Origin: an uncultured Lachnospiraceae bacterium
Lineage (GTDB): Bacteria; Bacillota; Clostridia; Lachnospirales; Lachnospiraceae
NCBI GenBank assembly: GCA_946628415.1
Contig: CAMOWK010000011.1
Location: 9,927 to 73,926, forward strand
Length of the DNA: 64,000 nt
Direction of reading: 5' to 3'
A model generated the notes under the pieces. It had not been told where the DNA came from, made no database searches, and saw nothing but the letters and a program-made list of their open reading frames with translations. The stretch's first letter is position 1, and each line of letters begins with the position of its first letter. The translations under genes and the position numbers were made by a program. This document shows positions 16,201 to 53,181 of this stretch, in pieces.

Positions 16201-16959
16201 TTAATTCAAATAATTTGACAATCTTCTTTTTATATCACTTGAACATATCCTCGGTGTCCTTGATAGCCCTACTACTTCCCTGCCATTTTCATTACACCAT
16301 TTAACAGCCCTCTTAAAGCCATCATGAGTCTGATCTCCACCTATGGCAAAAATATCAAAATCTTCTTTTGGTAAACTGGTATCAACATCCCGGTATACCA
16401 CTACCTCATCAACAACCTTGAATGCAGAGACCATATTGATTCTTTCCTGAGTCGTATAAAAAATATCTGCATTCGGTTTTGTCTTGAGTATAAAGTCACC
16501 ATCCTGCACCGCTACAACCAGATAGTCACCGTACTTCTTTGCATTTTCAAAAAGTATGAGATGCCCATAATGAAAGAAGTCAAAAACGCCAACCGTAATA
16601 ACAGTTTTCTGAGGCCTTGGCTTTGAAGTCATTTTATTACGAAGTAAGGGTTCTGTAGTACCCCCCCTACCCATCAAATCCAGATCAAAATACTTATCAA
16701 TCTCATATCCGACAGGTTCTTCTGTACCTTTTACTAAAAATGCATCATCGACTGCTTCAAGTCCCTTTATCAGTTTTAATCGCATATCCTCCGGATATAT
16801 GATTTCTTCGTCAGAAATAGTTTTAGCATATTCATCATCAAAAACACCAATTATCAGTTTTTCACATGCAGCCTTACATTTTTCAATCAGTTTTAGATTT
16901 CCCAGATGAAATACATCAAACACTCCACTAATATAGCCCGTGTGGTATTGTTTTTCCAT
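16201..16959 (-). CDS. Tandem TagD-like cytidylyltransferase; N-terminal domain degenerate
   Basis: Domain 1 SGVFDVFHLGN (HxGH changed to HxGN). Domain 2 VGVFDFFHYGH intact, C-terminal SRTPRICSSDIK. Confidence 0.85.
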   Translation of the reverse strand: MEKQYHTGYISGVFDVFHLGNLKLIEKCKAACEKLIIGVFDDEYAKTISDEEIIYPEDMRLKLIKGLEAVDDAFLVKGTEEPVGYEIDKYFDLDLMGRGGTTEPLLRNKMTSKPRPQKTVITVGVFDFFHYGHLILFENAKKYGDYLVVAVQDGDFILKTKPNADIFYTTQERINMVSAFKVVDEVVVYRDVDTSLPKEDFDIFAIGGDQTHDGFKRAVKWCNENGREVVGLSRTPRICSSDIKRRLSNYLN

Positions 16960-17003: not shown

Positions 17004-17876
17004 CTAGCAATCCTCATCATCAATAAACTCTGTACCATCAAGATATTTTATATACTTTGCCGCCTGATTCCACCTCTTCGACTCTGGAGGTAGTGTCATA
17101 TAGTCATCTCCGTAAAAATGACTGAGTATTTCTTTGTAGCCTACCGGAATTGGCATGGCAGTATCTTCGAATTCAGAATCTATAAGTTTTGAAAACCATT
17201 TTTTCTTATAGATTTCAAAACTGTCTACACATGTAAGCACATATCCGGTTTCCTTATTCTCATATTTTAACATAGTTTTGTTAAAATAATCAGATAGTTT
17301 TTTGGGAGTAATCCCAAATATTTTACACAAATGCTTTATAAATACCTTTGCCAGATATTTGAACTGTCCGGGTAATCCTTTTTCAAAAACCACTGTCTTT
17401 TCACATGATGTAACCGTATACAAAGCCTTTATGATTTTGATTTTAGTATCAATATTATGAAGTATATTATTATCAGCAGGTATATTGTAATAAGGGAATA
17501 TTTCGACAAATATACCCATATCGTCCATTCCGCTTTCCTTTGCGAGACGCGTTACAAATCTGGAATTCTTATAATAGAATTTCGGAATAATTATATAATA
17601 ACCGCCGGGAGTCACTGAAGGAGCATAAAAGCCGTACTCATCAAATTCCTCCTTCGGTATACTGAGGAATTTTATATAATCACTGTAAAACATTCCTATA
17701 TCCATATCATCGTCCCAGGGTATAAAGCCCTTATGCCTTACCGCCCCCAGCAGCGTTCCTGAAATGGCAAAAAATTTAATATCATACTTTTCACATAGAC
17801 TGCGAAATTTATTATATACAGTTATTATATCTCCATGAAGCTTTTTTAAATCTTCTTCATTATACTTCTTGTACAT
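17004..17876 (-). CDS. LicD-family nucleotidyl/phosphotransferase
   Basis: SGTLLGAVRHKGFIPWDDDMDIG, IFVEIFPY, FEDTAMPIP, YGDDYMTLPP. Confidence 0.92.
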   Translation of the reverse strand: MYKKYNEEDLKKLHGDIITVYNKFRSLCEKYDIKFFAISGTLLGAVRHKGFIPWDDDMDIGMFYSDYIKFLSIPKEEFDEYGFYAPSVTPGGYYIIIPKFYYKNSRFVTRLAKESGMDDMGIFVEIFPYYNIPADNNILHNIDTKIKIIKALYTVTSCEKTVVFEKGLPGQFKYLAKVFIKHLCKIFGITPKKLSDYFNKTMLKYENKETGYVLTCVDSFEIYKKKWFSKLIDSEFEDTAMPIPVGYKEILSHFYGDDYMTLPPESKRWNQAAKYIKYLDGTEFIDDEDC

Positions 17877-19119
17877 TTCTATCCCCTTTTTCTATATTAT
17901 GAACATCAAACAGCAGCATAACTATAAGAATAATCATAAGAAGAACTTCCGCGATAACCTGTGAATAACTGCCGCCATTTGGTCCAAATGCCGATATAAG
18001 CGGTCTGTTTATGACAAAATTCAGTATAAAAGAAATCGTCACTGCGATCAGTAGCTGAACAGACTTTCTTATAGCAATCAGCATCCCTGCAAAAAACCAG
18101 ACTGCAGCAGCGAAAAATGTGCACCATATAAGCGGAATCAGGTATTCATCGTGAGCTGCTATAGATGGATTATATAAAAGCTCAAGTCCCCAGTGTCCAA
18201 GCAGATATCCCCCAATATTCAGCACAACAAATGCTGCAACTATTATGAGTGATATCTTTTTTATATATCCGATAAATTTTTCTTTATTCCCATCAAAAAA
18301 GGTTCTTGCTATTCCCGGTATAAACGGCGAATATATAACACTCGCTGTAAGCTGAATAATGACTGTAGGTGATGCGACAGTTGAATAAATACCCAATTCC
18401 TCAATGCCACACTTTTGTTTTATACTCACCCTCACAACTGTGGCAAAAGAAGAAGCCATGAAGTAATAAACTACAAGACCTGCGCATGATTTAAGAAGCT
18501 TAATTATCCTTGCATCATATTTAACCTTCCCAATTCCTGCTATGTTCCTTGTCTGCTTCTTATCATAAAATTGAAATACAAGCCAGTCACTGAGAGCTAT
18601 AAAAATAAAGGTGATATACATTTCTCTTGTCAGTAAAAAAACAACTACAAATGAGGCAAGCTGCAGCGTTCCTCTCATAATATAAGATTTACCAATTATA
18701 TCAAAACGCCAATTTGTCTGCAGCACTCCCTGATAAACATCTTCAGCTGACTCAACTATTCTCATACACATATATATGAGAATACATATAATCTCCATTG
18801 GAGATGTACATACAATGACAGAATAGACTACACATGCTATATATGCAACTGCGCACGTAATCCGCCTGCTCATTATATAATCTTCGTTAGAATAAACCTT
18901 TGTTATATCGGAAATCTGAAAGCTCCTCATCCCAAAAGAAGCTATACTGGCAAATGAATTGGTTACTGACATTGCAAGTCCGAGCATCCCTACAGGCCAA
19001 TAGTTATCTTTTGACATATATACTATCAAAACTGTCATCAACCATTGACAAAAGGAAAAATATACATTTCCCACCGTATTCCACATAATACTCTTTTTCA
19101 TTAAAGCATTACTTTCCAT
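17860..19119 (-). CDS. Wzx-type polysaccharide flippase
   Basis: About 12 TM helices; N-terminal SIMWNTVGNVY, ELGIYST; located within the polysaccharide locus. Confidence 0.8.
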   Translation of the reverse strand: MESNALMKKSIMWNTVGNVYFSFCQWLMTVLIVYMSKDNYWPVGMLGLAMSVTNSFASIASFGMRSFQISDITKVYSNEDYIMSRRITCAVAYIACVVYSVIVCTSPMEIICILIYMCMRIVESAEDVYQGVLQTNWRFDIIGKSYIMRGTLQLASFVVVFLLTREMYITFIFIALSDWLVFQFYDKKQTRNIAGIGKVKYDARIIKLLKSCAGLVVYYFMASSFATVVRVSIKQKCGIEELGIYSTVASPTVIIQLTASVIYSPFIPGIARTFFDGNKEKFIGYIKKISLIIVAAFVVLNIGGYLLGHWGLELLYNPSIAAHDEYLIPLIWCTFFAAAVWFFAGMLIAIRKSVQLLIAVTISFILNFVINRPLISAFGPNGGSYSQVIAEVLLMIILIVMLLFDVHNIEKGDRNVQEV

Positions 19120-19127
19120 ATGTATTC

Positions 19128-19982
19128 CTATTCATCCTTAAATTTAAGTTTATATGGGTAATGATTTTTTCTTTTATCTTCAGGTGGAAGTTGCATAAAA
19201 TCACCGAACATTTTATTCAGGTTATCTTCTATCCTGTTGGGGAACTTAAGATCAAGTCCCTCAAACTTAATGGTTTTCAGCGGATAAATATCATCATAAT
19301 CATAAATATTAAGATAAGCTGTTGTATCACAGAGAAAGTCAAACCTCTTTGCCCCGGCTTTCCCATTATACTGAACACTTACTCTGTGGCACATCTGATA
19401 AAGCCACTTTGAAGAGACATTTAATGTCTTAAGGAACCAGTGAATCATCCCACATACAGGCTGAACTATCTTTGCCTTTATTCCGCTAAACGGAAGGACA
19501 GGATGAGGAATGCTTCTTAGAATAAGGAGCTTGCTCCAGAAGAAAGCCTGAACTGCCTGCCTCCTGAACTTCTTTTCATCATCCGGAATCTGATCAAAAG
19601 GGTATAAATCAAGGAAGATTCCAAAAGGAAGATCAATATCCTTAAGCGGCCACTCGACAAACTCAGTCCCTTTCATCGTCCATCTTGTAGTCAGCAGTGG
19701 ATAATTCGGATAATTTTTCCCGTTCATAAGAAAATACTTGTCACCGTAATACTTATCCGCAAGCCGAAGGAATCTTTCATAATCCTTACGCGGCATAGCT
19801 ATATCAATATCATCATCCCACGGTATAAAACCACCGTGTCTTATAGCCCCGATTGCCGTTCCTCCAACGCCGAAATAAGTAATATTATTTTTTTCACAAA
19901 GATCGAGGAAATCTCTGAGTATTTCTAATTCTGCCTCATGTATTTTCCTGAGCGTTTCCTCATCATAACTTCTATCTGTCAT
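19128..19982 (-). CDS. LicD-family nucleotidyl/phosphotransferase
   Basis: GGTAIGAIRHGGFIPWDDDIDIAMPRKDYERF, IFLDLYPFD, FGDFMQLPPE. Confidence 0.93.
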   Translation of the reverse strand: MTDRSYDEETLRKIHEAELEILRDFLDLCEKNNITYFGVGGTAIGAIRHGGFIPWDDDIDIAMPRKDYERFLRLADKYYGDKYFLMNGKNYPNYPLLTTRWTMKGTEFVEWPLKDIDLPFGIFLDLYPFDQIPDDEKKFRRQAVQAFFWSKLLILRSIPHPVLPFSGIKAKIVQPVCGMIHWFLKTLNVSSKWLYQMCHRVSVQYNGKAGAKRFDFLCDTTAYLNIYDYDDIYPLKTIKFEGLDLKFPNRIEDNLNKMFGDFMQLPPEDKRKNHYPYKLKFKDE

Positions 19983-26963: not shown

Positions 26964-27833
26964 TTACAGCCCGTTAGCTACATCAACGAGATATTCACCG
27001 TAATGTGTCTTCATAAGAGGTTCAGCAAGTTTAAGAAGCTGCTCTCTGTCTATAAAGCCTCTCTTATAAGCTATCTCTTCAATACATGAAATGTAAAGTC
27101 CCTGTCTCTTCTGGAAAGCTGCCACAAAGTCAGCAGCATCAAGGAGCATGTCATGGTTGCCCGTATCAAGCCATGCGAAGCCACGGCCTAAGGTTTCAAC
27201 CATAAGGTCTCCTCTTTCAAGATACACATTGTTTACAGATGTGATCTCTATCTCGCCTCTTGCGGAAGGTTTAACATTCTTTGCAATCTCAACCACATCA
27301 TTGTCATAAAAGTAAAGCCCCGGAACAGCGTAATTTGACTTCGGTTTTTCAGGCTTTTCCTCGATTGATATAGCCTTTCCGGACTCATCAAATTCAACAA
27401 CTCCGTACTCCCTTGGATCTCTTACATAATACCCAAAGATTGTTGCGCCCTTTTCTCTGCCGGCAGCACGTTTTAAGACTGCCGAAAAGCTCTGACCATA
27501 GAAAATATTATCACCAAGCACAAGCGCAACACTGTCATTTCCTATAAACTCCTCGCCTATAATGAATGCATCAGCGAGGCCTCTCGGACTTTCCTGAATC
27601 GCATACTGAAAATTCATTCCAAGCTGCTCACCTGTTCCAAAAAGCTCCTTGAAACACGGAAGGTCACGTGGGGTTGAAATAATAAGAATATCTCTTATCC
27701 CCGCAAGCATCAGTGTAGAAAGCGGATAATATATCATCGGTTTATCATAAACCGGCATTATCTGTTTGGATACCGCCTTAGTAAGCGGATAAAGTCTTGT
27801 ACCGGAACCACCGGCGAGTATTATACCTTTCAT
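26964..27833 (-). CDS. rfbA: Glucose-1-phosphate thymidylyltransferase
   Basis: [56 protein letters not shown]. Confidence 0.97.
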
Positions 27834-27849: not shown

Positions 27850-28971
27850 TTACAGAGTATTCAGATATTCCATAAAATTACGTTTGTTTTCAATTGCTGT
27901 TGTCGTCGGGCGGCCAAGATCATCTCTCGCACCAATCCCGCATTTCACTTCAATAAAGCTTAATTCTTTTTTATTCTTAGCACCAAGAAGTGCATCATCT
28001 AATTCTTCATAAGAATTAACGGAAACCACATTCGGATATCCACATGCTTTTGCAATACCGACAATATCTATCTTACCTGCAACCGTCGGCATTCCACCAA
28101 CTGTTTCATGTGCGCCGTTATTGATCACTATATGTATCAGATTATCCGGTTTTTCAGCACCTATAACAGCTAATGCACCCATATGCATAAGAGCCGCTCC
28201 GTCACCGTCTATACACCAGATTCTTTGATCTTTTTTGTTAGATGCTACACCTAATGCTATGGAAGAAGAATGTCCCATTGACCCAACGGTAAGAAAATCA
28301 TATTTATGGCTCTGCCCATTTGCCTCTCTTATCTCAAAAAGCTCTCTGCTGGCTTTACCCGTTGTGGATATGATCGGGTCTTCACCTGATACCTTTACTA
28401 TATGCTTTATAATCTCTTCCCGGAGCATACTGTTATCATTTGAATAATCCACCTTGGGAGCATCTGAAAGAGCACCTTTTCTGATTACAAAAGCCACATC
28501 TCTGCCTTTACCAAGAACATCCCTAAATCCGTCCATAACATTTTGGACTTCTTCATCAGATGTATCGCTTCCTATTACGAATGTTTCAATCCCCATATCC
28601 TGAAGGAGCTTAACAGTCACTTCACCCTGGTATATGTGCTGAGGCTCGTCATGAATTCCTGGCTCACCTCTCCACCCTATAATAAAGATGACCGGTATAG
28701 CATATACTTTGTCATTCAGTAAGCTTGCAACAGGATTTATAATGTTTCCTTCACCGGAGTTCTGCATATAAACAACAGGAACCTTTCCGGTTGCAAGATG
28801 ATATCCTGCGGCTATTCCTACAGAATTACCTTCATTTGCCGCAATCACATGATGCTCTGCATCTATTCCATATGTCGCCATAAGATAATTGCAAAGTGCC
28901 TTAAGCTGCGAATCAGGGACTCCGGTGTAAAAATCCGAATCTATAATACTGACCAGTTTATCAACTCTCAT
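27850..28971 (-). CDS. aepY: Phosphonopyruvate decarboxylase
   Basis: [49 protein letters not shown], ThDP motif DGDGAALM. Confidence 0.95.
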
Positions 28972-28989
28972 TAAAAGCTCCTCCGTCCC

Positions 28990-30177
28990 TTAATTATCGC
29001 TCTTTGTTTGCGGAAGTATGATCTCATCTATTATAAATTTAGCTGTTTTATCTATCTCATCGTATGAAACAGTTTTGGGTAGTTCCACTCCAAATGCATT
29101 CTTTACCTTTTCGAGCAGAGCATCTGTATATATAAGTTTTCCATCGCGAACGTCTTCAACACCATCAAGTGCCATCGACGCCCTGTCAGCCTCATTCATT
29201 TCTTCAAAACTGAATACGGAATCATCAATCCATGCACCAAGCTTTCCGTCTCTATAACCGACAATAACAGGATAACCACCGATATTACCGTCAAAGCCCG
29301 GAATGAAAACCCTCTGCTGCTCACCTGTTCTTACAGCATCTATCACCGACATAATAATCCTGAAATTTGATGATGCATTCATCATATTTCTTGTCTGGTC
29401 AACAGGCATAGGTATATGACATGCAGCGTAAATTCTGTCATGAGGGATATCCTTTTCTTCACCTTTATAATAAACTTTAAGCGGAAGACTTACTCCCTCA
29501 GTCTGTCCTTCCTTGCTTATACATACATCATGAAAATGTCCTGCGGCAAACATGATATCAACATTCCAGTAATCATCAACGCCCAGAATATCTGCCACGG
29601 CAAACCTCATACGCGGAACAAGATGATTAAGATTACCCGACCCAAAATCAGGATATGCTTTGCCTGCGCTCTTAAGCCACGGAATTACAGCATCCGAGTA
29701 CGAAGTATTAATAACAATCGCATCTGTATCCGCCTTATCACATGCTTCCATCACATTCTTCGTAAAACGGATTGCAAGAGGACTCCATATTCCGTAAGCC
29801 CTTATATTTGCCCAGCTTATACTTCCGTATTTAAGACCCGGGTAAGCCCTGCTGGAATTAACGATAAAATCAGGTCTGTACTTTTCAATTGCATCCTTTA
29901 CGGCATCAATATCATTTAAATCAACGCCTCCACATACTTCAATGTGAGACTTATTCCTTTCCCTTATAAGGCCTGCTACCCGTGCAATATTCACCTTTGT
30001 CGTAAGCTTATCCGCATTTCTTCCGACAACGATAACACTTATAGCCGGATCGTTCTCGCTTATAAGATAATCCAGAAGATACGAGCCTACACTGCCGAGG
30101 CCTATAATCATTACTTTTATATCATTTTCTTTAATATGCTGTTCAACTGTTTCAAGTCTTTCTGCTAATGTTTTCAT
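28990..30177 (-). CDS. Uncharacterised NAD(P)-binding oxidoreductase, possibly LDH/MDH-like fold
   Basis: N-terminal Rossmann motif VMIIGLGSVG; INTSYSD, GSGNL, GHFH; C-terminal PGFDGNIGGYPV. Overlaps its neighbour by 4 nt. Confidence 0.6.
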   Translation of the reverse strand: MKTLAERLETVEQHIKENDIKVMIIGLGSVGSYLLDYLISENDPAISVIVVGRNADKLTTKVNIARVAGLIRERNKSHIEVCGGVDLNDIDAVKDAIEKYRPDFIVNSSRAYPGLKYGSISWANIRAYGIWSPLAIRFTKNVMEACDKADTDAIVINTSYSDAVIPWLKSAGKAYPDFGSGNLNHLVPRMRFAVADILGVDDYWNVDIMFAAGHFHDVCISKEGQTEGVSLPLKVYYKGEEKDIPHDRIYAACHIPMPVDQTRNMMNASSNFRIIMSVIDAVRTGEQQRVFIPGFDGNIGGYPVIVGYRDGKLGAWIDDSVFSFEEMNEADRASMALDGVEDVRDGKLIYTDALLEKVKNAFGVELPKTVSYDEIDKTAKFIIDEIILPQTKSDN

Positions 30178-30929
30178 TTTTCCTCCCAGTAAGAAACTAT
30201 CTTTCTGTAATCTTCTCTTGTATTACAATTGGTCCATCTGCCAAGTCCGACCAGTTCTATATCAGTAACAGAGTCGATGTAATCCTGTATGATCTTTAAA
30301 TTAGTATCTCCCTTTGCTTCGGCAAAAAACTTTTCATTTGCCAGTTTCAGTTTGTCTATATCTTTAAATTTCCATGTCTGCCCGGAATTAAAAATGCATG
30401 AAAAAGCTTTTTCAATCATAAGCATGCCATGGGAGCTGTTAAATGCATAGCAAAACTTTTCTCTATCATCCTTATAAAGCACTACCGCTTTATTTGCATA
30501 AATGGGTTCATAATTATATGTGAGTACATTTTTATCCGAGTCCAAAATCCTGCCAAATGACTCGTCATCTATATCCAGATCCCCTTCCACAAAAAGGATC
30601 TCATCCGGATTCTTAAGAAATGCCTCTTTTAGTCCGAGATAAAGACTGTAGCCTGAAGCAAGATCACTGAATCGGTCATTATAGACAAGCTGTACTTTTT
30701 CCCTTAAATCACTTTCAAGCCCGTCCATATAAGCCCTTAAATCATCAAATTTATAACCGCCCACAACTACTATCTGATCTGCATAAGAACACTTTTTCAA
30801 CATCTGATAAATAAGTGTACTTTTTTCATCAGTTTCGGTGTATATGGCTTTCAGTTTTTTTTCTTCCTCCGGAATATCTTTATTAAACCTGCTTGATATT
30901 CCGGCAACAGTAATAATAGCAATTTTCAT
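30174..30929 (-). CDS. LicC/PntC-like NTP transferase (cytidylyltransferase)
   Basis: IAIITVAGISSRFN (variant of the ILAAG.GTR glycine loop), VVGGYKF, LFVEGDL, NCNT.EDY. Confidence 0.75.
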   Translation of the reverse strand: MKIAIITVAGISSRFNKDIPEEEKKLKAIYTETDEKSTLIYQMLKKCSYADQIVVVGGYKFDDLRAYMDGLESDLREKVQLVYNDRFSDLASGYSLYLGLKEAFLKNPDEILFVEGDLDIDDESFGRILDSDKNVLTYNYEPIYANKAVVLYKDDREKFCYAFNSSHGMLMIEKAFSCIFNSGQTWKFKDIDKLKLANEKFFAEAKGDTNLKIIQDYIDSVTDIELVGLGRWTNCNTREDYRKIVSYWEEK

Positions 30930-30952
30930 ATTGAAATACTCTTTGTAATATT

Positions 30953-31960
30953 TTAATTATTCTTTTTAAGGTAATTGGTTATACACTCATCAAGTCCTAT
31001 ATCGAGTGTAACCGCCGGTTTCCATGCGGTTCTTGTCCTTATCTTTTCTGTAGAAAGAAGTCTCCTCTCCGGATCCGACTCTCTGTAACCGCTGAATTCT
31101 ATAACAGGATTATCTATCCCCATTTTTGCGGCACATTTTTTAGCAAGATCTATTATCGATATTTCTTCATCTGTAGCCACATTGTAAACAGTTCCGTCAA
31201 GAGCTGAGTCAGTCCCGGCAAGCGCCAGCACAGCACTGCAGCTGTCATAATTATTCAGGAAAGTCCTTCTGTTTTTTCTGCTGTTTTCAAGAAGAACAAC
31301 TTTTCCATTATCACGGAAGCTGTTAATAATAAACGGTATGATATGTTTCGGGTAACGTTCGTCTTTTGAATATACATTGGCAAAACGGATTGAACACCCT
31401 TTTATTTTTCCTTCGTCAACCGCATCCTTGATAAAGAACTCGGTAAGAAGCTTTCCTGTTGCATAGCTGGTTCTCTGACTGTGTTCAGCAACAGACATTG
31501 TAAGATAATCACTTTCCTTAACACCACCGTTTTCATTCCATGAATTCATGGAATAAACTTCTGATGTTGAGCAGTTGATATACTTTCCGGCACCGACTCT
31601 TATAGCCTGCTGAAGGAAATTATTCATACCTTCCACATTTGTTTCAAATGTCTCATAAACATGATAGAAATGCTCGGTATGAACTACTGCCGCACAGTTG
31701 ATATATATAACTTCGTCATAATCATTTTTAATACTGTTAACGCGGTTCTCAAAATCCTGCATTTCCTCTTTATTATTAAGGTCATATTCAAAGAATTCAA
31801 ATCTTTCGTCATTAATATGATCTGAAACAGTGTCTATGGAAGAAGCATAGAAATTATCAAAACCAAGTATATGATCAGTACTGCCATCTGTAAGTATCTG
31901 TCTAACAAGTTCATTTCCCGTCATTCCCGTGACACCACTTATTGCATAAAGTTTACTCAA
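30953..31960 (-). CDS. Extended SDR, NAD-dependent epimerase/dehydratase (UDP-GlcA decarboxylase-like)
   Basis: ISGVTGMTG, STSEVYS, RTSYATGKL (YxxxK), IRFANVY, GTVYNVA. Confidence 0.85.
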   Translation of the reverse strand: MSKLYAISGVTGMTGNELVRQILTDGSTDHILGFDNFYASSIDTVSDHINDERFEFFEYDLNNKEEMQDFENRVNSIKNDYDEVIYINCAAVVHTEHFYHVYETFETNVEGMNNFLQQAIRVGAGKYINCSTSEVYSMNSWNENGGVKESDYLTMSVAEHSQRTSYATGKLLTEFFIKDAVDEGKIKGCSIRFANVYSKDERYPKHIIPFIINSFRDNGKVVLLENSRKNRRTFLNNYDSCSAVLALAGTDSALDGTVYNVATDEEISIIDLAKKCAAKMGIDNPVIEFSGYRESDPERRLLSTEKIRTRTAWKPAVTLDIGLDECITNYLKKNN

Positions 31961-31972
31961 GTTTTTATCCTC

Positions 31973-32719
31973 CTATATTCCGTTTGTCAGTCTTATCTTA
32001 TAAAATTCATCTATTGAATCAGGAAAAAGTGACTGTTCAAATTCTATATTATACGAAACCGCCCTGAGCTCCACTCTTTTTGACGGAAGCGTAAGTACCG
32101 CATACTGCGCATATGGATTTTGATTTCTCGGCTGTCCCACAGAACCCGGGTTTATAAACATAACCGCTTTCTTATTTCTCATATCCGGATTATCCACATT
32201 ATAAAACTTGGTAAAGCAGTGCGAATAATGTGAATGGCCGCTAAGGACGATATCATAATCCTGATAATCTCCTCTTAGATTTTCAGGAAGTATGGCTTTC
32301 CAGTAATTATCCTCCAAAGAGCCATGAACAGCAAGTATTCTGTTTCCTAAAAGGCTTATCTCATCTATACCTTTTTTATTCATCTTTTCGCGTATATACT
32401 TTACGGAAGCACTGCTAAGATTCCTTGCCGTATACTCTGCCATAACCCGTCCCCTGTCAGATGAAAGTCTTTCCAGATCCTTATCAACTACAAGCTTCTC
32501 ATGGTTTCCCCATATGTTAATAAGAATTCTATTCTTCCATTTACCATTTTCAAGGTGAGTCAGCTTCTCTATTATTTCACTTGATCTCATACCGTAATCT
32601 ATACAGTCACCTAAGATCATTATACCCGAAAAATCCTCATCCCTGCAGTCATCCATCACAGCATCAAATGCGCTGACATTTCCATGTATGTCTGAGAGGA
32701 TTAAATACTTTTCTTCCAC
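31973..32719 (-). CDS. Calcineurin-like metallophosphoesterase
   Basis: ILSDIHGN, LGDCIDYG, WGNHE, VHGS, SGHSH, NPGSVGQPR all intact; GTG start with AAAGGA RBS. Confidence 0.9.
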   Translation of the reverse strand: MEEKYLILSDIHGNVSAFDAVMDDCRDEDFSGIMILGDCIDYGMRSSEIIEKLTHLENGKWKNRILINIWGNHEKLVVDKDLERLSSDRGRVMAEYTARNLSSASVKYIREKMNKKGIDEISLLGNRILAVHGSLEDNYWKAILPENLRGDYQDYDIVLSGHSHYSHCFTKFYNVDNPDMRNKKAVMFINPGSVGQPRNQNPYAQYAVLTLPSKRVELRAVSYNIEFEQSLFPDSIDEFYKIRLTNGI

Positions 32720-32755
32720 TTCATATCCTTTCAAAAACACTTTTTCTATCAGTTT

Positions 32756-34054
32756 TTATATTTCATCTATGAGTGTTATGATTTCTTTTATCGGCATAAG
32801 CCTGTCATCAACCTCTTTAGCCCTGTGATACTTCAGAATATCTTCTGCAGTCTTCTGCATGGCAGGAAATGCTGAACGTGTCAACTGATTTGCATAGATA
32901 ACGATATTTACTCCGTGACTTGCGAGTTCAGACTCGGTAATGGAATTGAATGATGATGGTACAACTACTATAGGAGTAGTCTTATCCTCCGCTCTAAACT
33001 TATCGCAAAACTCGATAATCTCTGCCGGGTCTTTCTTTCTGCTGTGAATCATAATGCCATCGGCACCTGCCGAAACAAAAGCCCTTGCCCGACTAAGGGC
33101 ATCTTCCATTCCACGTTCAAGAATCAGGCTTTCAATCCTTGCTATTATCATAAAGTCATCAGTCAGCTGAGCCTTTTTACCTGCAGCTATCTTAGCACTG
33201 AAATTCTCTATACTGTCCTGTGTCTGCTCAACCTCAGTTCCAAAGAGACTGTTCTTCTTAAGCCCTGTCTTATCTTCGATAATCACAGCGGAAACACCCA
33301 GTCTTTCAAGTGTACGTACTGTATATACGAAATGTTCCGTAAGTCCGCCCGTATCTCCATCAAAGATAATCGGCTTTGTTGTTACTTCGGTAATATCTTC
33401 GATAGTACGGAATCTTGACGTCATATCAACCAGTTCAATGTCCGGTTTACCTTTAGCGGTAGAATCACATAAACTTGATATCCACATCGCATCGAACTGA
33501 TCGAGTTTTCCGTTTTCACCTTCAACTACAGTCTTCTCAACTATAAGTCCCGTCAGTCCGGAATGAGCTTCCATCACTTTTACGACAGGCGTCATTTCAA
33601 TCAGCTGTCTAAGTCTCTTTCGTCTGTACTCAGGCATTGAAAGCTTTTCCTTCAGCTGAAGGTCAATCTTCCTTACACTTTCATTATAGGTGTATGGAAT
33701 ATCTATAATCTGTCCGCCGTAAGAATTAAGAAGCTTTTCAACGTGTGAACGTATAGATGCTTCGGCTCCGGTCTTCCAGTTATCACCATGTATAATATAA
33801 TCAGGATGAAGCAATTCTATAACATCATTATAAAGCATATCATCCTGAAGAATAACGTCATCCACACCGTCGATTCCCCGGTACAGATTCATCCTTTCTT
33901 CTTCAGTAGTAGTGGGAAATTTGGTACAGCGCATCATTTCCCTGTCACTGAGACATCCAACAATCACCCTGCCATATTCCTTTGCATGATTTATGATATT
34001 AAGATGTCCCTCATGTATAACATCAGTACTGAAACATGTATAAACTGTTTTCAT
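32756..34054 (-). CDS. aepX: Phosphoenolpyruvate mutase with N-terminal cytidylyltransferase domain
   Basis: TDVIHEGH (HxGH) domain; PepM signature EDKTGLKKNS; DGDTGG, MIHSR, IYANQL.RSA. Confidence 0.96.
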   Translation of the reverse strand: MKTVYTCFSTDVIHEGHLNIINHAKEYGRVIVGCLSDREMMRCTKFPTTTEEERMNLYRGIDGVDDVILQDDMLYNDVIELLHPDYIIHGDNWKTGAEASIRSHVEKLLNSYGGQIIDIPYTYNESVRKIDLQLKEKLSMPEYRRKRLRQLIEMTPVVKVMEAHSGLTGLIVEKTVVEGENGKLDQFDAMWISSLCDSTAKGKPDIELVDMTSRFRTIEDITEVTTKPIIFDGDTGGLTEHFVYTVRTLERLGVSAVIIEDKTGLKKNSLFGTEVEQTQDSIENFSAKIAAGKKAQLTDDFMIIARIESLILERGMEDALSRARAFVSAGADGIMIHSRKKDPAEIIEFCDKFRAEDKTTPIVVVPSSFNSITESELASHGVNIVIYANQLTRSAFPAMQKTAEDILKYHRAKEVDDRLMPIKEIITLIDEI

Positions 34055-34099
34055 ATCAGTTCCTCTCAAATAGTCTGTTTATAGTTTTATAGTCACTGA

Positions 34100-35590
34100 T
34101 CAATCATTTTTCTTACGTTTAATCTTATTAACCAGCTGACCTGTTATCTCAATCACAAGTTTCTCCTTTATAAGAAGCATATAGACCAGATACGCACCAA
34201 AGAAAAGCGTTCCGGATATAGCCATTTTTATAAATGAATCAAGCTCTGTATTCGTACTAAAGCTGAAAAACTTAAATGAAATGCAAAGTCCTGTACCAAG
34301 AAGTGTCGCAATTACTACATGAATCCATTTCACATCGCAGAAAAGCTTCGCCTTTAAATCCCTGGTAATATAAAACTGATAAATAAGCACGCTTATTTCA
34401 GCTATCAGTGTTCCAAAAGCAGCGCCTGCCGCCCCAAACTTAGGTATGAAAAGTGCATTGAGCACAAGGTCGATTACTGCTCCTATGATTTCAGAATAAA
34501 GAACTTCCTTTTCTCTGTCCAGTGGCACAAGCATCTGAATTCCCGTTACATTTGTAATTCCGATAAGAAGCACCGTCGGCATGATTATCATCATCGCAGG
34601 AGCAGCCGCTTTATAATCATTACCCGAAAGAAACAGTATCCCTTCTTTTGCATATAAGATAAAGTACACAGAAATCGGAACTGCAATCAGTATTATAAAA
34701 TGCATCGTCTTTCTGAGTATTCTGTAAAACTCATCCATCATCCCTTTGTCTACATAAAGGGATGCCCTCGGAAGCAACACGGTACTTACCGATGTGACGA
34801 TAGAAAGAAGTATATTCTTAAGCTTTACGGCTGCACCGTACAGTCCGACCTCTCCATCATCTTTGATGAAACCGATCATGACTTTGTCCAGATTCGTATA
34901 AATAACAGTTGCTACAGACATTGCAAAAAATGTAAAAATCATCTTAAGATGCTGCCTGAAGTTATAACCGCCTATCGGTCTCAGATATACGAATTTCCGA
35001 AGATTTATAAAATTCAGTACATTGGAAGCTGAACTTGCAAAAATACTTATCGCACCATAAAGTACGACATCTTCTCTCTTTTTAACAAACAGCAGCATTG
35101 CAGCAACTGCGATCACCTTGAATATAAGAGACCTTACTGTTATATACTGATACTTTTCAAGTCCCCTGTATAACCATTCTACACCTATAGCCCCAAGAAA
35201 TATGGTCGCTCCCATTATAATAAAAAGGGTAAGATCCCTTCTCAGTCTTGGTATCATGACTATGGCAAACCCATATACAACGTAGACTATAAGGCATGTA
35301 ACCATGTTAATTGTCAGAAGTTCATGGGTAAGTCTGGTAAGCTTTTCTTTATCATCCCTCACTTTTCCCGCGGCTTTTATGCCATACATGGGAATTCCCA
35401 GCTGTGCAAACATAGAAAAGTAAGTAACTATGGATGCGACAAACTCAACTTTTCCGGTTCCTTCTTTAAAGATAACTCTGGATATATACGGAAAAGTAAT
35501 AAAAGGAAAAATGAACTGCGACATTGTAAGTATCGCACTCATTATCATATTCTTTTTGACTGATGTTTTCTTAATATCGCTATCATTCAT
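34100..35590 (-). CDS. Wzx flippase
   Basis: FPFITFPYISRV, QLGIPMYG, VGLYGAAVK, LIPKFGAAGAAFGTLIAE; about 12-14 TM. Start trimmed to ATG 35590. Confidence 0.9.
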   Translation of the reverse strand: MNDSDIKKTSVKKNMIMSAILTMSQFIFPFITFPYISRVIFKEGTGKVEFVASIVTYFSMFAQLGIPMYGIKAAGKVRDDKEKLTRLTHELLTINMVTCLIVYVVYGFAIVMIPRLRRDLTLFIIMGATIFLGAIGVEWLYRGLEKYQYITVRSLIFKVIAVAAMLLFVKKREDVVLYGAISIFASSASNVLNFINLRKFVYLRPIGGYNFRQHLKMIFTFFAMSVATVIYTNLDKVMIGFIKDDGEVGLYGAAVKLKNILLSIVTSVSTVLLPRASLYVDKGMMDEFYRILRKTMHFIILIAVPISVYFILYAKEGILFLSGNDYKAAAPAMMIIMPTVLLIGITNVTGIQMLVPLDREKEVLYSEIIGAVIDLVLNALFIPKFGAAGAAFGTLIAEISVLIYQFYITRDLKAKLFCDVKWIHVVIATLLGTGLCISFKFFSFSTNTELDSFIKMAISGTLFFGAYLVYMLLIKEKLVIEITGQLVNKIKRKKND

Positions 35591-35606
35591 AATAAGAGTT
35601 TTTAGT

Positions 35607-36416
35607 TTACTCCTCTTCTGACTCTTCCACAGGCATATATACTGACTGCCCGTTTGACATATATATATTATAGCCACAGGTATTTTTATATATTTCAAAT
35701 CCATATTGGAAAAGTGTTACATCATCTACAGGATGTTCCTCTGCGGCAACTATAAAATTAAACCCACCGTCAACAGCCGCTTTAAGCACGATATCATAAT
35801 CCGGCTCTTCAGCTTCCAGAGCCTTACTTACGGAGCTCCTCTGATAATCCGTATAAACTATATATCCCTCTATATCCCTGCCATACATTGTTTCGATATT
35901 GGCATTATAAGCTCTCATATGCCATGTCATATTGTGAGGACAAATGCATCGCGGAGACTCGTCAGCCGAAAGCATTGTGTCAGCAACACTAACCGCCGTT
36001 TCCGAAAGTCCGTACTGATTGGTTCTTTTACCGAACTCTTCACCGGCAAAGATATCTGCCCCCAAAAATACTATGACCGCTGTAACAAATGCCATCATAA
36101 AAAGCTTATTTCTTAATCTGTTCTGACTATTCACAAGTTTTGAAATGGCAAGCGCAATGATAATTATATCCGGAATGAGCCAGAATATTCTCCAGTACGA
36201 CTTAAACGAATCTTTGAGGACATAGTAAACTACGGGGTTCAGGACCACAAAAATCATCAGAAGCACCGGGTATATAAGCTTTTTTCTAAGTTCTTTTTCA
36301 GAAACAAAAAGATAAAGTCCCGCTATAACGGCAAATGCAAGTATTGCCTCATCCTCATAATAAATATTCAGTTTTCCAAGCACCTCTGTGAAGAGGTTCT
36401 TCGCAACCGTAATCAT
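35607..36416 (-). CDS. Hypothetical membrane protein (partner of the DUF6077-like protein)
   Basis: Four N-terminal TM helices (LNPVVY, YWRIFWLIP) followed by a soluble C-terminal domain. Confidence 0.65.
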   Translation of the reverse strand: MITVAKNLFTEVLGKLNIYYEDEAILAFAVIAGLYLFVSEKELRKKLIYPVLLMIFVVLNPVVYYVLKDSFKSYWRIFWLIPDIIIIALAISKLVNSQNRLRNKLFMMAFVTAVIVFLGADIFAGEEFGKRTNQYGLSETAVSVADTMLSADESPRCICPHNMTWHMRAYNANIETMYGRDIEGYIVYTDYQRSSVSKALEAEEPDYDIVLKAAVDGGFNFIVAAEEHPVDDVTLFQYGFEIYKNTCGYNIYMSNGQSVYMPVEESEEE

Positions 36417-41450: not shown

Positions 41451-42167
41451 TTACTTCAGCCATCCATCCTTATCAGACTTCAGATAAGCCTTAAACAGTT
41501 CCAGATCATCCTTTGTTGTGAGCTTGATATTCTTGTCAGAGCCCGCAGCAAAATAGAGCCTTACACCCAGTTCAACCATCATAGTATTGGTATAAGAAGA
41601 ACCGTATATTCCTACTTCTTTTTCATATGCTTCGTGGTATTTATCATCCAGCAGACTGAACTTATATGCCTGAGGCGTAGAAACTCTTCTGAGAGTCTCT
41701 CTCGGAATATATTTTACAGTACTTATATCATCGTCGACTACAAAAATCTGTTCATTATAAGGCATTGATGTTACGGCATTTCCATACTTTCTGCACTTAA
41801 CTATTACATCTGATAGAACCGATTCATCTACAAGAGGTCTTATTCCGTCATGAATTATGATTATATCATCCGGAGAAGCTTTATCCTCAAGATTATATAC
41901 GCCGTTACGGATTGATTCCTGACCTGTGCTGCCACCGGAAACTATCCATTTAACCTTGTCAATATTAAACTGTTTTACGTATGCCCAGACAACCTCATGC
42001 CATCCGTCTATACATACAACTTCTATCGCATCAATATCCGGATGACGCTGAAAACCTTCCAAGGTATATACAAGAACAGGTTTATCATATACATTTATAA
42101 ACTGCTTTGGGATATCCTGTCCCATTCTGCTGCCTGAACCACCGGCAATAATAACTGCTATATTCAT
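41451..42167 (-). CDS. IspD/TarI-family cytidylyltransferase (Abp1-like), CDP-alditol pathway
   Basis: IIAGGSGSRMGQDIPKQF, GQESIRNG, IHDGIRP, STPQAY, NIKLTT.DD. Confidence 0.88.
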   Translation of the reverse strand: MNIAVIIAGGSGSRMGQDIPKQFINVYDKPVLVYTLEGFQRHPDIDAIEVVCIDGWHEVVWAYVKQFNIDKVKWIVSGGSTGQESIRNGVYNLEDKASPDDIIIIHDGIRPLVDESVLSDVIVKCRKYGNAVTSMPYNEQIFVVDDDISTVKYIPRETLRRVSTPQAYKFSLLDDKYHEAYEKEVGIYGSSYTNTMMVELGVRLYFAAGSDKNIKLTTKDDLELFKAYLKSDKDGWLK

Positions 42168-43658: not shown

Positions 43659-46600
43659 TTATTTTTCTATAACTACTTCTTTACCGCGGATATCATAATA
43701 TTTTACATCGGTTCTTTCATTTTTTTCGTTATAAATATACTCTACTTCCGAATAACCCTTATCACAGTTTACCGGATTATCATTCTCATCAAAGTATAAC
43801 TCTTTAATCTGATTATGCTTTTCATCATATTCGCGGCGAAGTATGGCGTAGCCGCCGCTTTTTTTCACAACTTTACCATCCAGATCAAGATATCTTTCTT
43901 CAGTAAGATAGCCCTGATCATCATATTCTCTCTCCCATGCCGCAAAGCCTTCGGGTCTTAAACAAGGATTACCGTCTGTGTCCAGATAGTCCTCGCGCAC
44001 CGTCTTATGGTACTTATCAAACTTTCTCTCAACAGTAGCGAAAAGTCCCCAGTACAGCGTCTCTTTTCCTTCAGCATCATATACAGTGAAACCTGTCTGA
44101 TTATCATACATATCATAAGTATATTCTATCGAAGCATAACCAGCCTTTAATGTATATGGCTTCCCATGCTTATCAAAGTATTCATCTTTTATAGCATGGT
44201 TCTTTGCATCAAATGTTCTGACAAGTTCTGCATAGCCGTCTTTACCGGCAGTCTTTTTCCCGTAGGCATTATAATATACTGTACTTGTTCTGTTTCCATT
44301 TTTATTATATGTATATTCTACAACTGAAAATCCGTCATTGCAATTAATAGGTCTGTCAGTCTTTGAAAAATAAGATTCTTTAAGGATTCTTTTTCCTTCG
44401 TCAAAGCTTCTCCTGAGTATAGCATAACCGGCATTGTTACTTGTAAGATTATTATCTCCGTCATAATACCTTGTAAGTATTATATTTCCTGCGGAGTCAT
44501 ATTCTCTTTCAAACGCAGCATACTCGCCGGTACATAGTACAGGTTTTCCGTTTCTGTCAAGATAATCCTCTCTGATGAGTTGTCCAAGACTGTTATATTT
44601 TCTCTCTATTGCAGTATATCCGTCTTTACATTTTACAGGTTTACCGTTAATTCCGGTATACTCCTCACGAATAATCTGTCCAAATTCATCATAATCCCTA
44701 TGAATATTTGCATAACCATTTGTTATAAGGACAGCTTTTCCTTCTGTATCGAAATAAGAATAGTCCGTCTGATTTCCGTTTTCATTATAGGCATATGTAA
44801 CAGATGCATATCCCTGATTTGTATAAGTAAGCTTTCCTTTTGTATCGCAATATTCTTCCTTTATTACTTTGTTCTCATCATTATAATACTTCTTAACTAT
44901 AGAATATCCGGAAGAAATAATGACAGGATTTCCATCGGCATCAGCATATGTCATTTTAGTAAGATGCCCCTCGTCATCATAGTCCTTGATAACTGCCATA
45001 TACCCTTCATTCCTTCGAGCCGGTCTTCCCATGTTGTCAAAGTAAGTTTCAAGTATTGGCAGATTCTTTCCATTAAAGTCAACATGAACAGTATTATACT
45101 GTCCCCAGAGCATATATTTCCAGCCGGAGGCATTTATATAAGTCGAATCGGAACGGTTTCCGTATTCATCATATTCATATTCGACCACTCCGTATCCTGA
45201 AGAATTGGTAAGTATACTTTCATCTGTCCCAAGATAGGTCTCTCGAATAAGTTTATTATCCTCATTATACTCTCTTTTTACAGTTGCATAGCCCGAGGTG
45301 TTAACTGTCAGTTTTCCATCTGTTCCAAAAACTTTTTCCAGCGTTACATTTTTTTCTTCATCATATTCACGTATTACAGCAGAATATCCGGATGAATTAA
45401 GCACAGGCTTTCCTTCTGTATCGAAAAACTCCTCACGAACTACATTTTTATCATCATCAAAAGTCCGACGTGTAGATGCGTAATTGCCCCTTATCATTAC
45501 AGGTGTCTTGCCATCAAAATATCTGATCAGGGATGCATTCCCCTCGTCATCATAGGAATACTCAACTGCGGAATAGCCTTTAAGAAGCATAGCCCTCTTC
45601 CCGTCAGCATCATAGTACTCCTCACGGGCAATCTGATTTTTAAAATTATAAGTACGCCTGAGTTCCGCGAAGCCTTTTTCCGTAACCATAGGCTTTGCCT
45701 CTTCATCAAGGTAAACTATATGATTCCTGTTATCTTCGCTGTCATATCCATACTCGCAGCCATAACAACCGTCAGAGGTCATGTATGGATTTCCTTCAAG
45801 GTCAAAATATCGTTCTAGGATGACACGTCCCTTATTATCATAAGTCTTATGCACATCGATATCAGGAGTTTTCCTAAATGTAATCTTGTCTATGATCACA
45901 TCATTCCCATCAACTCTGTACATTCTTATTCCGATAGCCCTGCCTTCAGGTATGTAGCATTTTAGATCTCTCTCGATTTTACCTTCCAGGCCAAAATCCG
46001 CTCTTGTAAGTCTCTCTTCTTTAATGTTTTCGGAATCCCAGACTTCATTTACCGCAAGTTTGCACATAATCGTGTCATTAGATGCTTCAAAGCTTTCGGA
46101 ATCCTTCGGAATCGAAAGTTCATAATGCACCGTATAAACTCCGGCTCTCAGTGCCTCAACCTGATGAATGGTATAATCAACCGTATTTTCTTTAGCATAA
46201 TATCCGGTAAAATGATAACCCGCCTTTTCAAGCGCTTCTATCACCTTTTCGTCATTCGAGTAAAATGCATGGTTTTCGGATATGTCTGTATATAAGAAAC
46301 CTCTTCCAAGCAATACATTTGCCTCAAAATCAGATGGCATAAGCACTGTGGTTTTCTCAAATCCTGCCAGCTGCTGTCCATCAAAAACAGACTTGCTGAA
46401 GAAACCATATTCTCTGTCATATAATTCCGGAAGGATGTTGGAATAAATCCTGCCGCCTGATTCTTTTAATGCATTTCCCGCAGCTTCCACAGCTTCCCTG
46501 TCAGGTTCCATCACGGCACTTTGATCATTCTCAGGTCTTGTGATTACTCTCTCACTGAAAAGATAGGCACCGAACAGCCCAAGAATCCCGCATGCTATGA

Positions 46601-48648: not shown

Positions 48649-48653
48649 TATAT

Positions 48654-50935: not shown

Positions 50936-50946
50936 AATGTCACCAC

Positions 50947-52350: not shown

Positions 52351-52376
52351 ACAAACCTCTCTTTTCACTTATCACA

Positions 52377-53120: not shown

Positions 53121-53142
53121 TATTGTACCTCCAGCAAATATC

Positions 53143-53181
53143 AATAGGACTTAATTTGTCCATTAGAAGAGTATATTCTAA
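53143..53181. promoter_or_regulatory. Two adjacent inverted repeats upstream of sufC, candidate Rrf2/IscR-type operator
   Basis: AATAGGAC-ttaattt-GTCCATT (53143-53164) and TTAGAA-gagtata-TTCTAA (53163-53181). Confidence 0.4.

Follow-up and report, generated by a model that had tools for sequence, protein, structure and literature searches.

Gene content of the locus

We analyzed a stretch of 64,000 nucleotides from an uncultured Lachnospiraceae bacterium (assembly GCA_946628415.1, contig CAMOWK010000011.1, positions 9,927 to 73,926), referred to below as the window. The window carries a run of six tightly packed genes, all on the minus strand (27850-34069), which we call the cassette. The cassette probably makes a phosphonate decoration of the cell surface, with an uncharacterized oxidoreductase replacing the usual transaminase or alcohol dehydrogenase.

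The open reading frames (ORFs) of the window were scanned with Pfam and NCBIfam. The first cassette gene (32756-34069, likely ATG start at 34054) codes for PepM, a 437-aa protein with a C-terminal phosphoenolpyruvate (PEP) mutase domain (PF13714) and an N-terminal cytidylyltransferase (CyTase) domain (PF01467). It is followed by the genes of a calcineurin-like metallophosphoesterase (MPE; 31973-32740, Metallophos_2, 69.6 bits), an extended short-chain dehydrogenase/reductase (SDR; 30953-31960, Pfam Epimerase / GDP_Man_Dehyd), a DUF6564 protein (30174-30929, PF20202, 307 bits), a 395-aa Rossmann protein that matched no Pfam or NCBIfam family above threshold and that we call Ross (28990-30177), and the phosphonopyruvate decarboxylase Ppd (27850-28971, TIGR03297, with TPP_enzyme_N and TPP_enzyme_C domains). 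The sequence-only reading, an earlier reading of this DNA, had called these six genes with equivalent labels, the DUF6564 gene as a LicC/PntC-like NTP transferase, and with gaps under 40 bp. All six ORFs were found as called, and the intergenic gaps from PepM to Ppd are 15, 12, 23, -4 and 18 bp, the negative value being the 4-nt overlap of the DUF6564 and Ross genes. A promoter scan was uninformative (55 promoter-like sites compared to about 50 expected), terminator-like sites fell within genes, and no sequencing runs were listed for the window. The operon status was therefore derived from gene spacing and synteny, and judged by these the six genes form a real operon.

The cassette is flanked directly upstream by the gene of a Wzx-type flippase (34100-35704, Polysacc_synt, 123.6 bits; gap to PepM 30-45 bp) and directly downstream by an RfbA-like glucose-1-phosphate nucleotidyltransferase gene (26964-27833, NTP_transferase, 257 bits; gap to Ppd 16 bp). 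The RfbA-like gene was not among the recurrent neighbor clusters of the other genomes described below. A LicD-family phospho(no)transferase, the candidate installer of the head group, is encoded at 19128-19982 (LicD, 124 bits) and a second LicD-family transferase at 17004-17876 (127 bits); a stand-alone, TagD-like cytidylyltransferase of the CTP_transf_like type (16201-16959, PF01467, 99 bits) adjoins this pair. Further genes code for an IspD/TarI-like cytidylyltransferase (41451-42167, IspD, 137 bits) and a LytR-CpsA-Psr (LCP) ligase (3777-4979, LytR_cpsA_psr, 124 bits). These neighbors are all on the minus strand as well. The inventory of about 40 kb around the cassette thus includes two LicD genes, the TagD-like cytidylyltransferase, Glf, several family 2 glycosyltransferases (GT2), GtrA, two Bac_transf initiating transferases, IspD, an acyltransferase and the LCP ligase. 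By its gene content, with the LCP ligase as a marker, the region is a wall-glycopolymer locus, in agreement with the wall-glycan context that had been proposed from the flippase and LicD genes.

Entry into the phosphonate pathway

The PEP mutase and CyTase domains of PepM scored 194 bits (PF13714) and 45 bits (PF01467), respectively, and the protein scored 413 bits against TIGR02320, above the cut-off of 319.55. The motif EDKxxxxxNS, specific for PEP mutase, is present in the translation as EDKTGLKKNS, and among solved structures the PEP mutases 5unc and 1m1b were matched with E<=1e-38. Residues 5-141, the CyTase domain, matched the structure of the CyTase domain of Fom1 (5x3d, E=3.6e-25) and contain the HxGH nucleotide-binding motif as HEGH. 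Ppd matched the equivalog model TIGR03297 over its full length with 473 bits (cut-off 312.5). By these sequence matches both enzymes are bona fide; therefore, PepM would convert PEP to phosphonopyruvate, and Ppd would convert phosphonopyruvate to phosphonoacetaldehyde (PnAA).

Distribution and conservation of the cassette

Relatives of Ross were sought in one genome per species. Of the 286 stretches obtained in this way, we kept the best 80 loci. Locus content was determined by BLASTP of the six window proteins against the ORFs of all fetched loci. In 57 species genomes the locus included at least 6 kb upstream and at least 3 kb downstream of the Ross gene. All six genes were present in 50 of these 57 full-flank loci, and 45 had the order PepM-MPE-SDR-DUF6564-Ross-Ppd, an arrangement far beyond chance. 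The median identity to the window proteins was 71% for PepM, 53% for MPE, 80% for SDR (the most conserved gene of the cassette), 59% for DUF6564, 74% for Ross and 72% for Ppd. MPE was found in 68 of the 80 genome loci. A set of 5.8 billion proteins contained 2981 homologs of Ross and 924 of DUF6564, with the best 120 Ross matches all being 77-83% identical.

The main carriers are Clostridia of the rumen and gut: Lachnospiraceae, Butyrivibrio sp. X503 and INlla21, Eubacterium ruminantium ATCC 17233, Ruminococcus and Oscillospiraceae. The cassette was also detected in Selenomonadaceae, Acidaminococcaceae, metagenome-assembled genomes (MAGs) of Bacteroidales, Methanomethylophilaceae, Defluviitaleaceae, Aliarcobacter faecis and A. 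butzleri. Seventeen genomes of Methanobrevibacter, M. millerae included, have the same six genes in the same order (L031, L032, L035, L040, L042, L044, L046-L050, L053-L056, L061 and L069), with protein identities of 49-78% and with Ross 70-76% identical; such identities imply that, in the rumen, the cassette has passed recently between bacteria and archaea. In the genome paper of M. millerae ZA-10, pepM and ppd were noticed as a cluster "with no methanogen matches" (PMC4987999).

The full six-gene set recurs in other orders at identities of about 30-47%. For example, in L011, where Ross is 47% identical, the order is PepM-Ppd-SDR-DUF6564-Ross-MPE. In L100 (Defluviitaleaceae), whose Ross is 35% identical to that of L011, PepM is fused to a PF12804 domain and the order is PepM-Ppd-MPE-SDR-DUF6564-Ross-LicD. 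At about 31% identity, L095 has PepM-Ppd-MPE-(ApgM/PhpG-like)-SDR-...-DUF6564-like-Ross-like on a 121-kb contig that appears phage-like (NrdD, thymidine kinase, ThyX, SSB and PHROG matches, phrog_5889). Structural phage genes were not seen in the fetched stretch of L095, and IMG/VR, when queried with the Ross alignment as well as the phage-like homolog, gave no relatives. The region 1-11164 of L095, as well as L009 and L010, also codes for a choline-kinase-like protein, a BCCT transporter and a LicC-like NTP transferase.

The linkage of the six genes, being kept through divergence and rearrangement, argues for one pathway. The assignment of the four previously unassigned genes to a phosphonate pathway, suggested earlier from the window alone, is borne out by their travelling with pepM and ppd in bacteria, in archaea and on the phage-like contig. 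On the evidence of these comparisons, the cassette is real, widespread and transferred between domains of life.

Reduced clusters point to the place of Ross in this pathway. In Roseburia (L087) the order is LicD...PepM-Ross-Ppd-LicD, with MPE, SDR and DUF6564 absent within 10 kb. L008 has PepM-Ppd-Ross. In L093 and L094, at 33% identity, the order is Ppd-Ross and the stop and start codons overlap. In general, Ross adjoins Ppd in loci that span 31-83% identity. That Ross stays with PepM and Ppd in the reduced clusters is the main argument that it uses PnAA, the product of Ppd.

In another variant, very common in the gut (L097, L098), SDR and DUF6564 are absent and the order is Ross-Ppd-Hexapep acyltransferase-MPE-PepM-TagF-like-NTP_transf_3-...-LicD. 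The six genes are thus not strictly obligatory together. The collection has the Ross protein of this variant in 469 blocks.

The neighboring ORFs of the 80 loci were clustered and annotated with Pfam. LicD was the commonest neighbor (38/80 loci, 69 copies, often paired), followed by GT2 in 21 and IspD in 20 of the 80 loci; glycerol-3-phosphate dehydrogenase recurred too. Accessory genes related to amines were sparse, with racemase, acyltransferase and methyltransferase genes each in 0-3 of the 80 loci, and these genes therefore lend little weight to an amine product.

Search for known branch-point enzymes

Surface phosphonate decoration is thought almost always to begin with PepM, Ppd and one of seven branch-point enzymes. 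A Pfam scan of the minus-strand ORFs of at least 150 aa, which took in the locus and the greater part of the window, without the 1156-aa ORF at 58010-61480, found no transaminase that would make 2-aminoethylphosphonate (AEP) and no iron-dependent alcohol dehydrogenase (Fe-ADH). BLASTP with a phosphonate-type Fe-ADH and a class-V aminotransferase as queries against all window ORFs of at least 70 aa gave no match. The absence of both enzymes from the window, as noticed by the sequence-only reading, was thus reproduced by two kinds of search. The Aminotran_5 gene at 48654-49880 was considered as a hidden AEP transaminase and rejected, being SufS inside a sufC-sufB-sufD-sufS-sufU operon. This complete operon for iron-sulfur assembly (48166-53144) lies beside the glycan locus, and SufS is the only class-V aminotransferase of the window.

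None of the 80 genome loci contained a class-V aminotransferase, and in particular none had one of the PhnW/AepZ type within 10 kb. The earlier view that the pathway takes neither the AEP transaminase nor the Fe-ADH route is supported. Judged by the enzymes that define the two routes, the cassette matches neither the classical AEP pathway (no AEP transaminase) nor the classical 2-hydroxyethylphosphonate (HEP) pathway (no Fe-ADH).

An aminotransferase in L001, a locus of a Bacteroidales MAG outside the 80 loci, was rejected as AepZ; it is SerC (545 bits, compared to 27.7 for PhnW/AepZ). In L001 (6446-8706, 10195-12295) Ross and Ppd are separated by inserted genes of SerC and of a SerA-like dehydrogenase, and immediately beyond Ppd come transposase genes of the IS21 (IstB) and Mu-like types. 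Although the phylum differs, the proteins of the L001 cassette are 65-94% identical to those of the window.

Fe-ADH was present in five of the 80 loci and in Aliarcobacter faecis (L096), each time in addition to Ross. In A. faecis the order is PepM-MPE-SDR-DUF6564-Ross-LicD-PepM-Ppd-FeADH; that is, the cassette is followed by LicD and then by a second CyTase-PepM, Ppd and a phosphonate-type Fe-ADH (TIGR03405, 337 bits). In L037, Ross likewise coexists with a phosphonate-type Fe-ADH. Because of this coexistence in L096 and L037, Ross is unlikely to be a second, redundant PnAA reductase.

The A. faecis cassette (CP053837.1, 59145-80314) lies within a flagellin-glycosylation island with NeuB, a CMP-sugar synthetase, Maf proteins and flagellin, and the gene layout suggests that flagellar glycans are modified with phosphonate and that two phosphonate branches run in parallel. 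In L059 (13892-16132), L062 (11194-13437) and L075 (1724-3970) the cassette adjoins the gene of a ~747-aa protein with three domains (DUF6564/NTP_transf_3-like, CTP_transf_like and Fe-ADH). In L037 the same tri-domain unit is present as two ORFs just upstream of Ppd.

These data bear on another explanation, in which a transaminase gene elsewhere in the genome serves to make ordinary 2-AEP. MPE, SDR, DUF6564 and Ross would then form a separate CDP-polyol or CDP-sugar pathway for the same glycopolymer, with DUF6564 and Ross acting in the manner of TarI and TarJ, and would only happen to lie beside pepM and ppd. We did observe a four-gene island, MPE-SDR-DUF6564-Ross (L005-L007), where the contig shows 10 kb upstream and 3.7 kb downstream and neither PepM nor Ppd occurs in this flanking DNA. 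Such a separate pathway would also agree with the fixed and often overlapping pair of DUF6564 and Ross genes, comparable to TarI-TarJ, with the resemblance of SDR to NDP-sugar enzymes and with the recurrence of IspD and glycerol-3-phosphate dehydrogenase as neighbors. On the other hand, the four genes are situated between pepM and ppd in the 45 of 57 loci mentioned above, the linkage survives shuffling down to about 30% identity, and Ross alone remains with PepM and Ppd in the minimal clusters. Also, the AEP transaminase is lacking within 10 kb in all 80 loci, although AEP clusters normally keep it adjacent according to the survey of phosphonate clusters by Li and Horsman (2022; PMC8942020). 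We consider this explanation very unlikely.

The Ross of the L005-L007 island is 58% identical, and its 90% cluster has 205 members; HigB- and HicB-type toxin-antitoxin genes flank the island.

Fold and conserved residues of Ross

In the Pfam scan, Ross had sub-threshold matches to Sacchrp_dh_NADP and Epimerase in the N-terminal part only. The score against Sacchrp_dh_NADP (PF03435, residues 22-109) was 24.8 bits, below the gathering threshold of 25.1, and Ross is thus outside this family. A profile search against the sequences of solved structures gave saccharopine dehydrogenase/reductase and carboxyspermidine dehydrogenase as the best matches for residues ~4-96 (E ~4e-6), while the match of lactate dehydrogenase (LDH) to residues 117-269 was weaker. 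Saccharopine reductase and carboxy(nor)spermidine dehydrogenase catalyze the NADPH-dependent condensation of an aldehyde with an amine. The resemblance of Ross to these enzymes is confined to residues ~4-96; the remainder of the protein is similar to LDH and malate dehydrogenase (MDH) and not to the C-terminal domains of saccharopine reductase.

The AlphaFold2 model of Ross, built from an alignment of 55 sequences, had a pLDDT of 95.8. All top 50 Foldseek matches in the PDB were MDH or LDH structures (E ~1e-9 to 1e-8, identity 12-18%), with TM scores of only 0.45-0.66. A Pfam match to Ldh_1 was absent. In a HMMER alignment, GSGNLNHLVPR of Ross was placed on GTGTTLD-TTR of LDH and GHFHD on GEHGDS, with a weak domain i-Evalue of 0.12. 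From the standard LDH motifs we take Arg189 of Ross to correspond to the arginine that binds the substrate carboxylate and His214 to the catalytic histidine.

In the Ross family as a whole, Asp162 never varies, and conservation of Asn182 and His214 is 90% or higher. The phosphonate-linked subfamily additionally has Arg53, Arg110, His185, Arg189 and Cys253 invariant or nearly so. The position of Arg53 after beta-2 suggests the use of NADPH, and two subfamily-specific arginines and one histidine would suit phosphonate binding. Ross belongs to an uncharacterized family and is a putative NAD(P)-dependent oxidoreductase with a predicted LDH/MDH-like fold.

With such a fold, Ross might also act before Ppd, as an MDH-like phosphonopyruvate reductase that makes phosphonolactate. 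Phosphonopyruvate is an analogue of oxaloacetate, the best structural matches of Ross are MDH and LDH, and the carboxylate-binding arginine of LDH is conserved. A reaction of this kind was proposed by Li and Horsman for a Paenibacillus cluster (PMC8942020). However, nearly all cassettes include Ppd, and at deep divergence it is the gene that is paired with Ross most tightly. The two enzymes would compete for one substrate. This makes the phosphonolactate branch the least probable of the alternatives, and a highly improbable one.

DUF6564, SDR and MPE

DUF6564 scored 20.5 bits against NTP_transf_3 (PF12804), below the gathering threshold of 27, and by sequence stays outside the PntC/LicC family. 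No match to a PDB sequence was found. The AlphaFold2 model (pLDDT 85) had as its best Foldseek matches PntC (6pd2, E 1e-12, TMq 0.74) and LicC (1jyk), and the nucleotide-binding loop G-x-x-(S/T)-R near the N-terminus is present as the invariant AGISSRF. The model thus makes DUF6564 a putative cytidylyltransferase of the PntC/LicC fold, and the earlier label "LicC/PntC-like" proved apt at the level of structure. The family is a recent Pfam entry.

SDR contains the motifs STSEVY and YxxxK, as in UDP-glucuronate decarboxylase (UXS), ArnA and GDP-mannose dehydratase (GMD). Its nearest solved relatives are dTDP-glucose 4,6-dehydratase and UXS (~1e-14 to 1e-12), and its substrate is probably nucleotide-linked. 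MPE had a sub-threshold match to the YfcE family, with 3rqz and 3qfm as the nearest solved relatives, the latter presumably the SapH Ap4A hydrolase/phosphodiesterase. We regard MPE as a putative phosphodiesterase or phosphatase; GpdQ, a member of the MPE family, hydrolyzes phosphonate monoesters.

Proposed pathway and the fate of phosphonoacetaldehyde

We consider it fairly probable that the cassette is one conserved, horizontally mobile module for a cytidylyl-activated phosphonate head group that LicD-type transferases put on a wall glycopolymer. As suggested by synteny and fold, Ross would consume PnAA with NAD(P)H in the position of the AEP transaminase or Fe-ADH, and in this role it is a probable new branch-point enzyme. 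The CMP-phosphonate donor would be made by DUF6564, by the CyTase domain or by both, with the Fom1-like CyTase of PepM as a second cytidylylation activity. MPE and the UXS/GMD-like SDR are hypothesized to modify an intermediate that is probably nucleotide-linked or phosphorylated. LicD would move the head group to the wall polymer, and this polymer would be flipped by Wzx and anchored by the LCP enzyme.

As for the product of Ross, we tentatively favor a reductive condensation of PnAA with an amine over the reduction of PnAA to 2-HEP; the product would be an N-substituted 2-AEP, such as N-(2-hydroxyethyl)-AEP. In favor of this reading, Ross coexists with a phosphonate-type Fe-ADH in L096 and L037, and its Rossmann domain is closest to solved enzymes that condense aldehydes with amines. 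Both PntC and LicC accept ammonium-bearing substrates (PMC6697681), which we count for the amine reading. Fibrobacter succinogenes makes N-(2-hydroxyethyl)-AEP without an AEP transaminase, and Li and Horsman propose reductive amination for it (PMC8942020). Their survey describes Fibrobacter and archaeal clusters of the class "post-Ppd other" as sharing the unusual pair PF12850 and PF16363.

Several observations speak against this picture. Over its whole length Ross matches LDH/MDH in fold, and the placement of Arg189 and His214 fits plain carbonyl reduction at least equally well as reductive amination. Amine-related accessory genes (SerC/SerA, acyltransferases and methyltransferases) are found in few loci only. 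Fibrobacter was not among the best 80 Ross loci or the named top-120 matches, with no search aimed at Fibrobacter. The only characterized relative of the CyTase domain, Fom1, acts on HEP (PMC6697681, citing Cho 2017). At the level of the whole module, the L005-L007 island carries Ross with MPE, SDR and DUF6564 apart from PepM and Ppd, and the common L097 variant lacks SDR and DUF6564.

The main alternative is the 2-HEP route, where Ross would be a non-orthologous reductase of PnAA. The CyTase domain would then make CMP-HEP, SDR would modify it, MPE would release the product in a FomD-like manner and DUF6564 would re-activate it for LicD. This scheme makes use of the LDH/MDH-like fold of Ross with an arginine and a histidine on the LDH catalytic positions, of the match of the CyTase domain to the HEP cytidylyltransferase domain of Fom1 (E=3.6e-25) and of the minimal PepM-Ross-Ppd-LicD clusters, which require no amine-supplying gene. 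It also accounts for the two cytidylyltransferases and the phosphodiesterase-type MPE. However, Ross and a phosphonate-type Fe-ADH would be redundant in one operon (A. faecis, L037), and the UXS/GMD-like SDR is left without a chemically sensible job on CMP-HEP. Moreover, fusions of PF01467 with PepM are also described for AEP clusters (PMC8942020, gene cluster family (GCF) 743), and thus the CyTase domain does not imply HEP. We see the 2-HEP route as possible though rather doubtful.

Returning to the amine condensation, a full scheme is speculative and, taken as a whole, unlikely. Ross would be an opine-synthase-like enzyme, the eighth early branch-point family, which condenses PnAA with (phospho)serine or another amine in an NADPH-dependent manner. 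With (phospho)serine the product would be N-(2-phosphonoethyl)(phospho)serine. MPE would then strip the phosphate and DUF6564 would cytidylylate the phosphonate, after which the UXS-like SDR would oxidize, decarboxylate and re-reduce the CMP-linked serine moiety to give CMP-N-(2-hydroxyethyl)-AEP, with LicD transferring its head group. If true, such an opine-like route would be independent of O2 and of pyridoxal phosphate and would explain the Fibrobacter head group. The cassette would then have spread this route horizontally among rumen and gut bacteria, Methanobrevibacter, flagellin-glycosylation islands of Campylobacterota and a large phage-like element.

The sequence-only reading had gone further on two points. 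Its "undescribed" head group is not established, as known products are possible, namely 2-HEP or the N-(2-hydroxyethyl)-AEP of F. succinogenes. For a condensation of the aldehyde with a CDP-sugar or alditol we found no support in any part of the analysis.

Comparison with known systems

The phosphonyl-tailoring (Pnt) pathway for 2-AEP glycans of Treponema denticola, Atopobium rimae and Bacteroides fragilis (PepM-Ppd-AEP transaminase-PntC-LicD; PMC6697681) resembles the cassette in the CyTase-fused PepM, Ppd, the PntC/LicC fold, LicD and the surface glycan. In contrast to the Pnt pathway, the cassette has Ross instead of the AEP transaminase and has MPE and the extended SDR in addition, while DUF6564, with its PF12804 score below threshold, resembles PntC in fold only.

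With the early steps of fosfomycin biosynthesis in Streptomyces (Fom1, the Ppd Fom2, the Fe-ADH FomC, transient CMP-HEP and FomD) the cassette shares the CyTase-PepM architecture and the PnAA intermediate. The logic of that pathway, where a phosphonate is cytidylylated, modified and hydrolyzed, could explain the MPE and the second cytidylyltransferase of the cassette. Unlike the fosfomycin cluster, however, the cassette has no Fe-ADH, no radical-SAM Fom3 and no DUF402 FomD, and is situated in a glycan locus with LicD and not in an antibiotic cluster.

Another related group is the class "post-Ppd other", which includes GCF 60 of F. succinogenes and the archaeal GCFs 869 and 685 (PMC8942020). 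The likeness extends to PepM and Ppd with none of the seven known branch-point enzymes, to PF12850 and PF16363 and to the occurrence in rumen organisms and archaea. When compared by domain names only, the window cassette has the same content as is described for GCF 60 (PepM and Ppd, no AEP transaminase, PF12850 and PF16363). A domain-based comparison of this type could have missed Ross, which has no Pfam family, and DUF6564. The neighborhood type is already listed in the literature as unclassified; new here, with respect to that listing, are the breadth of the cassette, its minimal forms and the fold assignments. Literature searches in an incomplete library found no paper on DUF6564 and none characterizing Ross or the cassette, and the cassette enzymes are, as far as searched, uncharacterized.

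The known PnAA reductases / HEP dehydrogenases fall into two classes, the Fe-ADH of the PhpC/FomC type and the medium-chain dehydrogenase/reductase (MDR) of the PbfG type (PMC13576164). Ross contains neither PF00465 nor PF00107 and is related to neither class. It has an LDH/MDH-like fold and coexists with a PhpC-like Fe-ADH in some operons, yet would catalyze the same reaction if it makes HEP. PbfG, an MDR zinc enzyme, was accordingly rejected as a relative of Ross.

Finally, the TarI/TarJ (CDP-ribitol) and LicA/LicC/LicD (phosphocholine) systems are similar in the pairing of a reductase with a cytidylyltransferase, in a CDP- or CMP-activated head group and in the use of LicD for transfer onto a wall glycopolymer. 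They differ in that the cassette substrate comes from PepM and Ppd and thus has a C-P bond, that Ross is not a TarJ-type MDR and that the cassette has no kinase.

The cassette is not rare; hundreds of rumen and gut species, the dominant rumen methanogens among them, carry it. If Ross is confirmed as the PnAA consumer, it would define a new branch point in phosphonate biosynthesis, give a function to DUF6564 (PF20202) and offer a candidate route to the N-hydroxyethyl-AEP head group of Fibrobacter. It would also define a surface modification common to bacteria and methanogens, with possible relevance to phage-host recognition and to the rumen phosphorus cycle. The cassette is present in cultured organisms, among them Eubacterium ruminantium ATCC 17233, Butyrivibrio spp., Methanobrevibacter millerae and Aliarcobacter faecis.

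Additional observations

Three ORFs of the window lack a Pfam match, namely one of 1485 aa (43659-48116), one of 419 aa between the two LicD genes (17860-19119) and one of 269 aa (35607-36416) whose frame overlaps the start of the Wzx gene.

An orphan member of the Ross family, annotated as hypothetical, was observed in the cultured Vibrio phage Va2 (L099, MW073017.1, 86429-87580); it is 31.5% identical to the phage-like homolog, and PepM and Ppd were not near it. A member from Rhizobiales is located beside an alanine racemase gene (L092). The wider Ross family, as seen from these two cases, has other contexts too.

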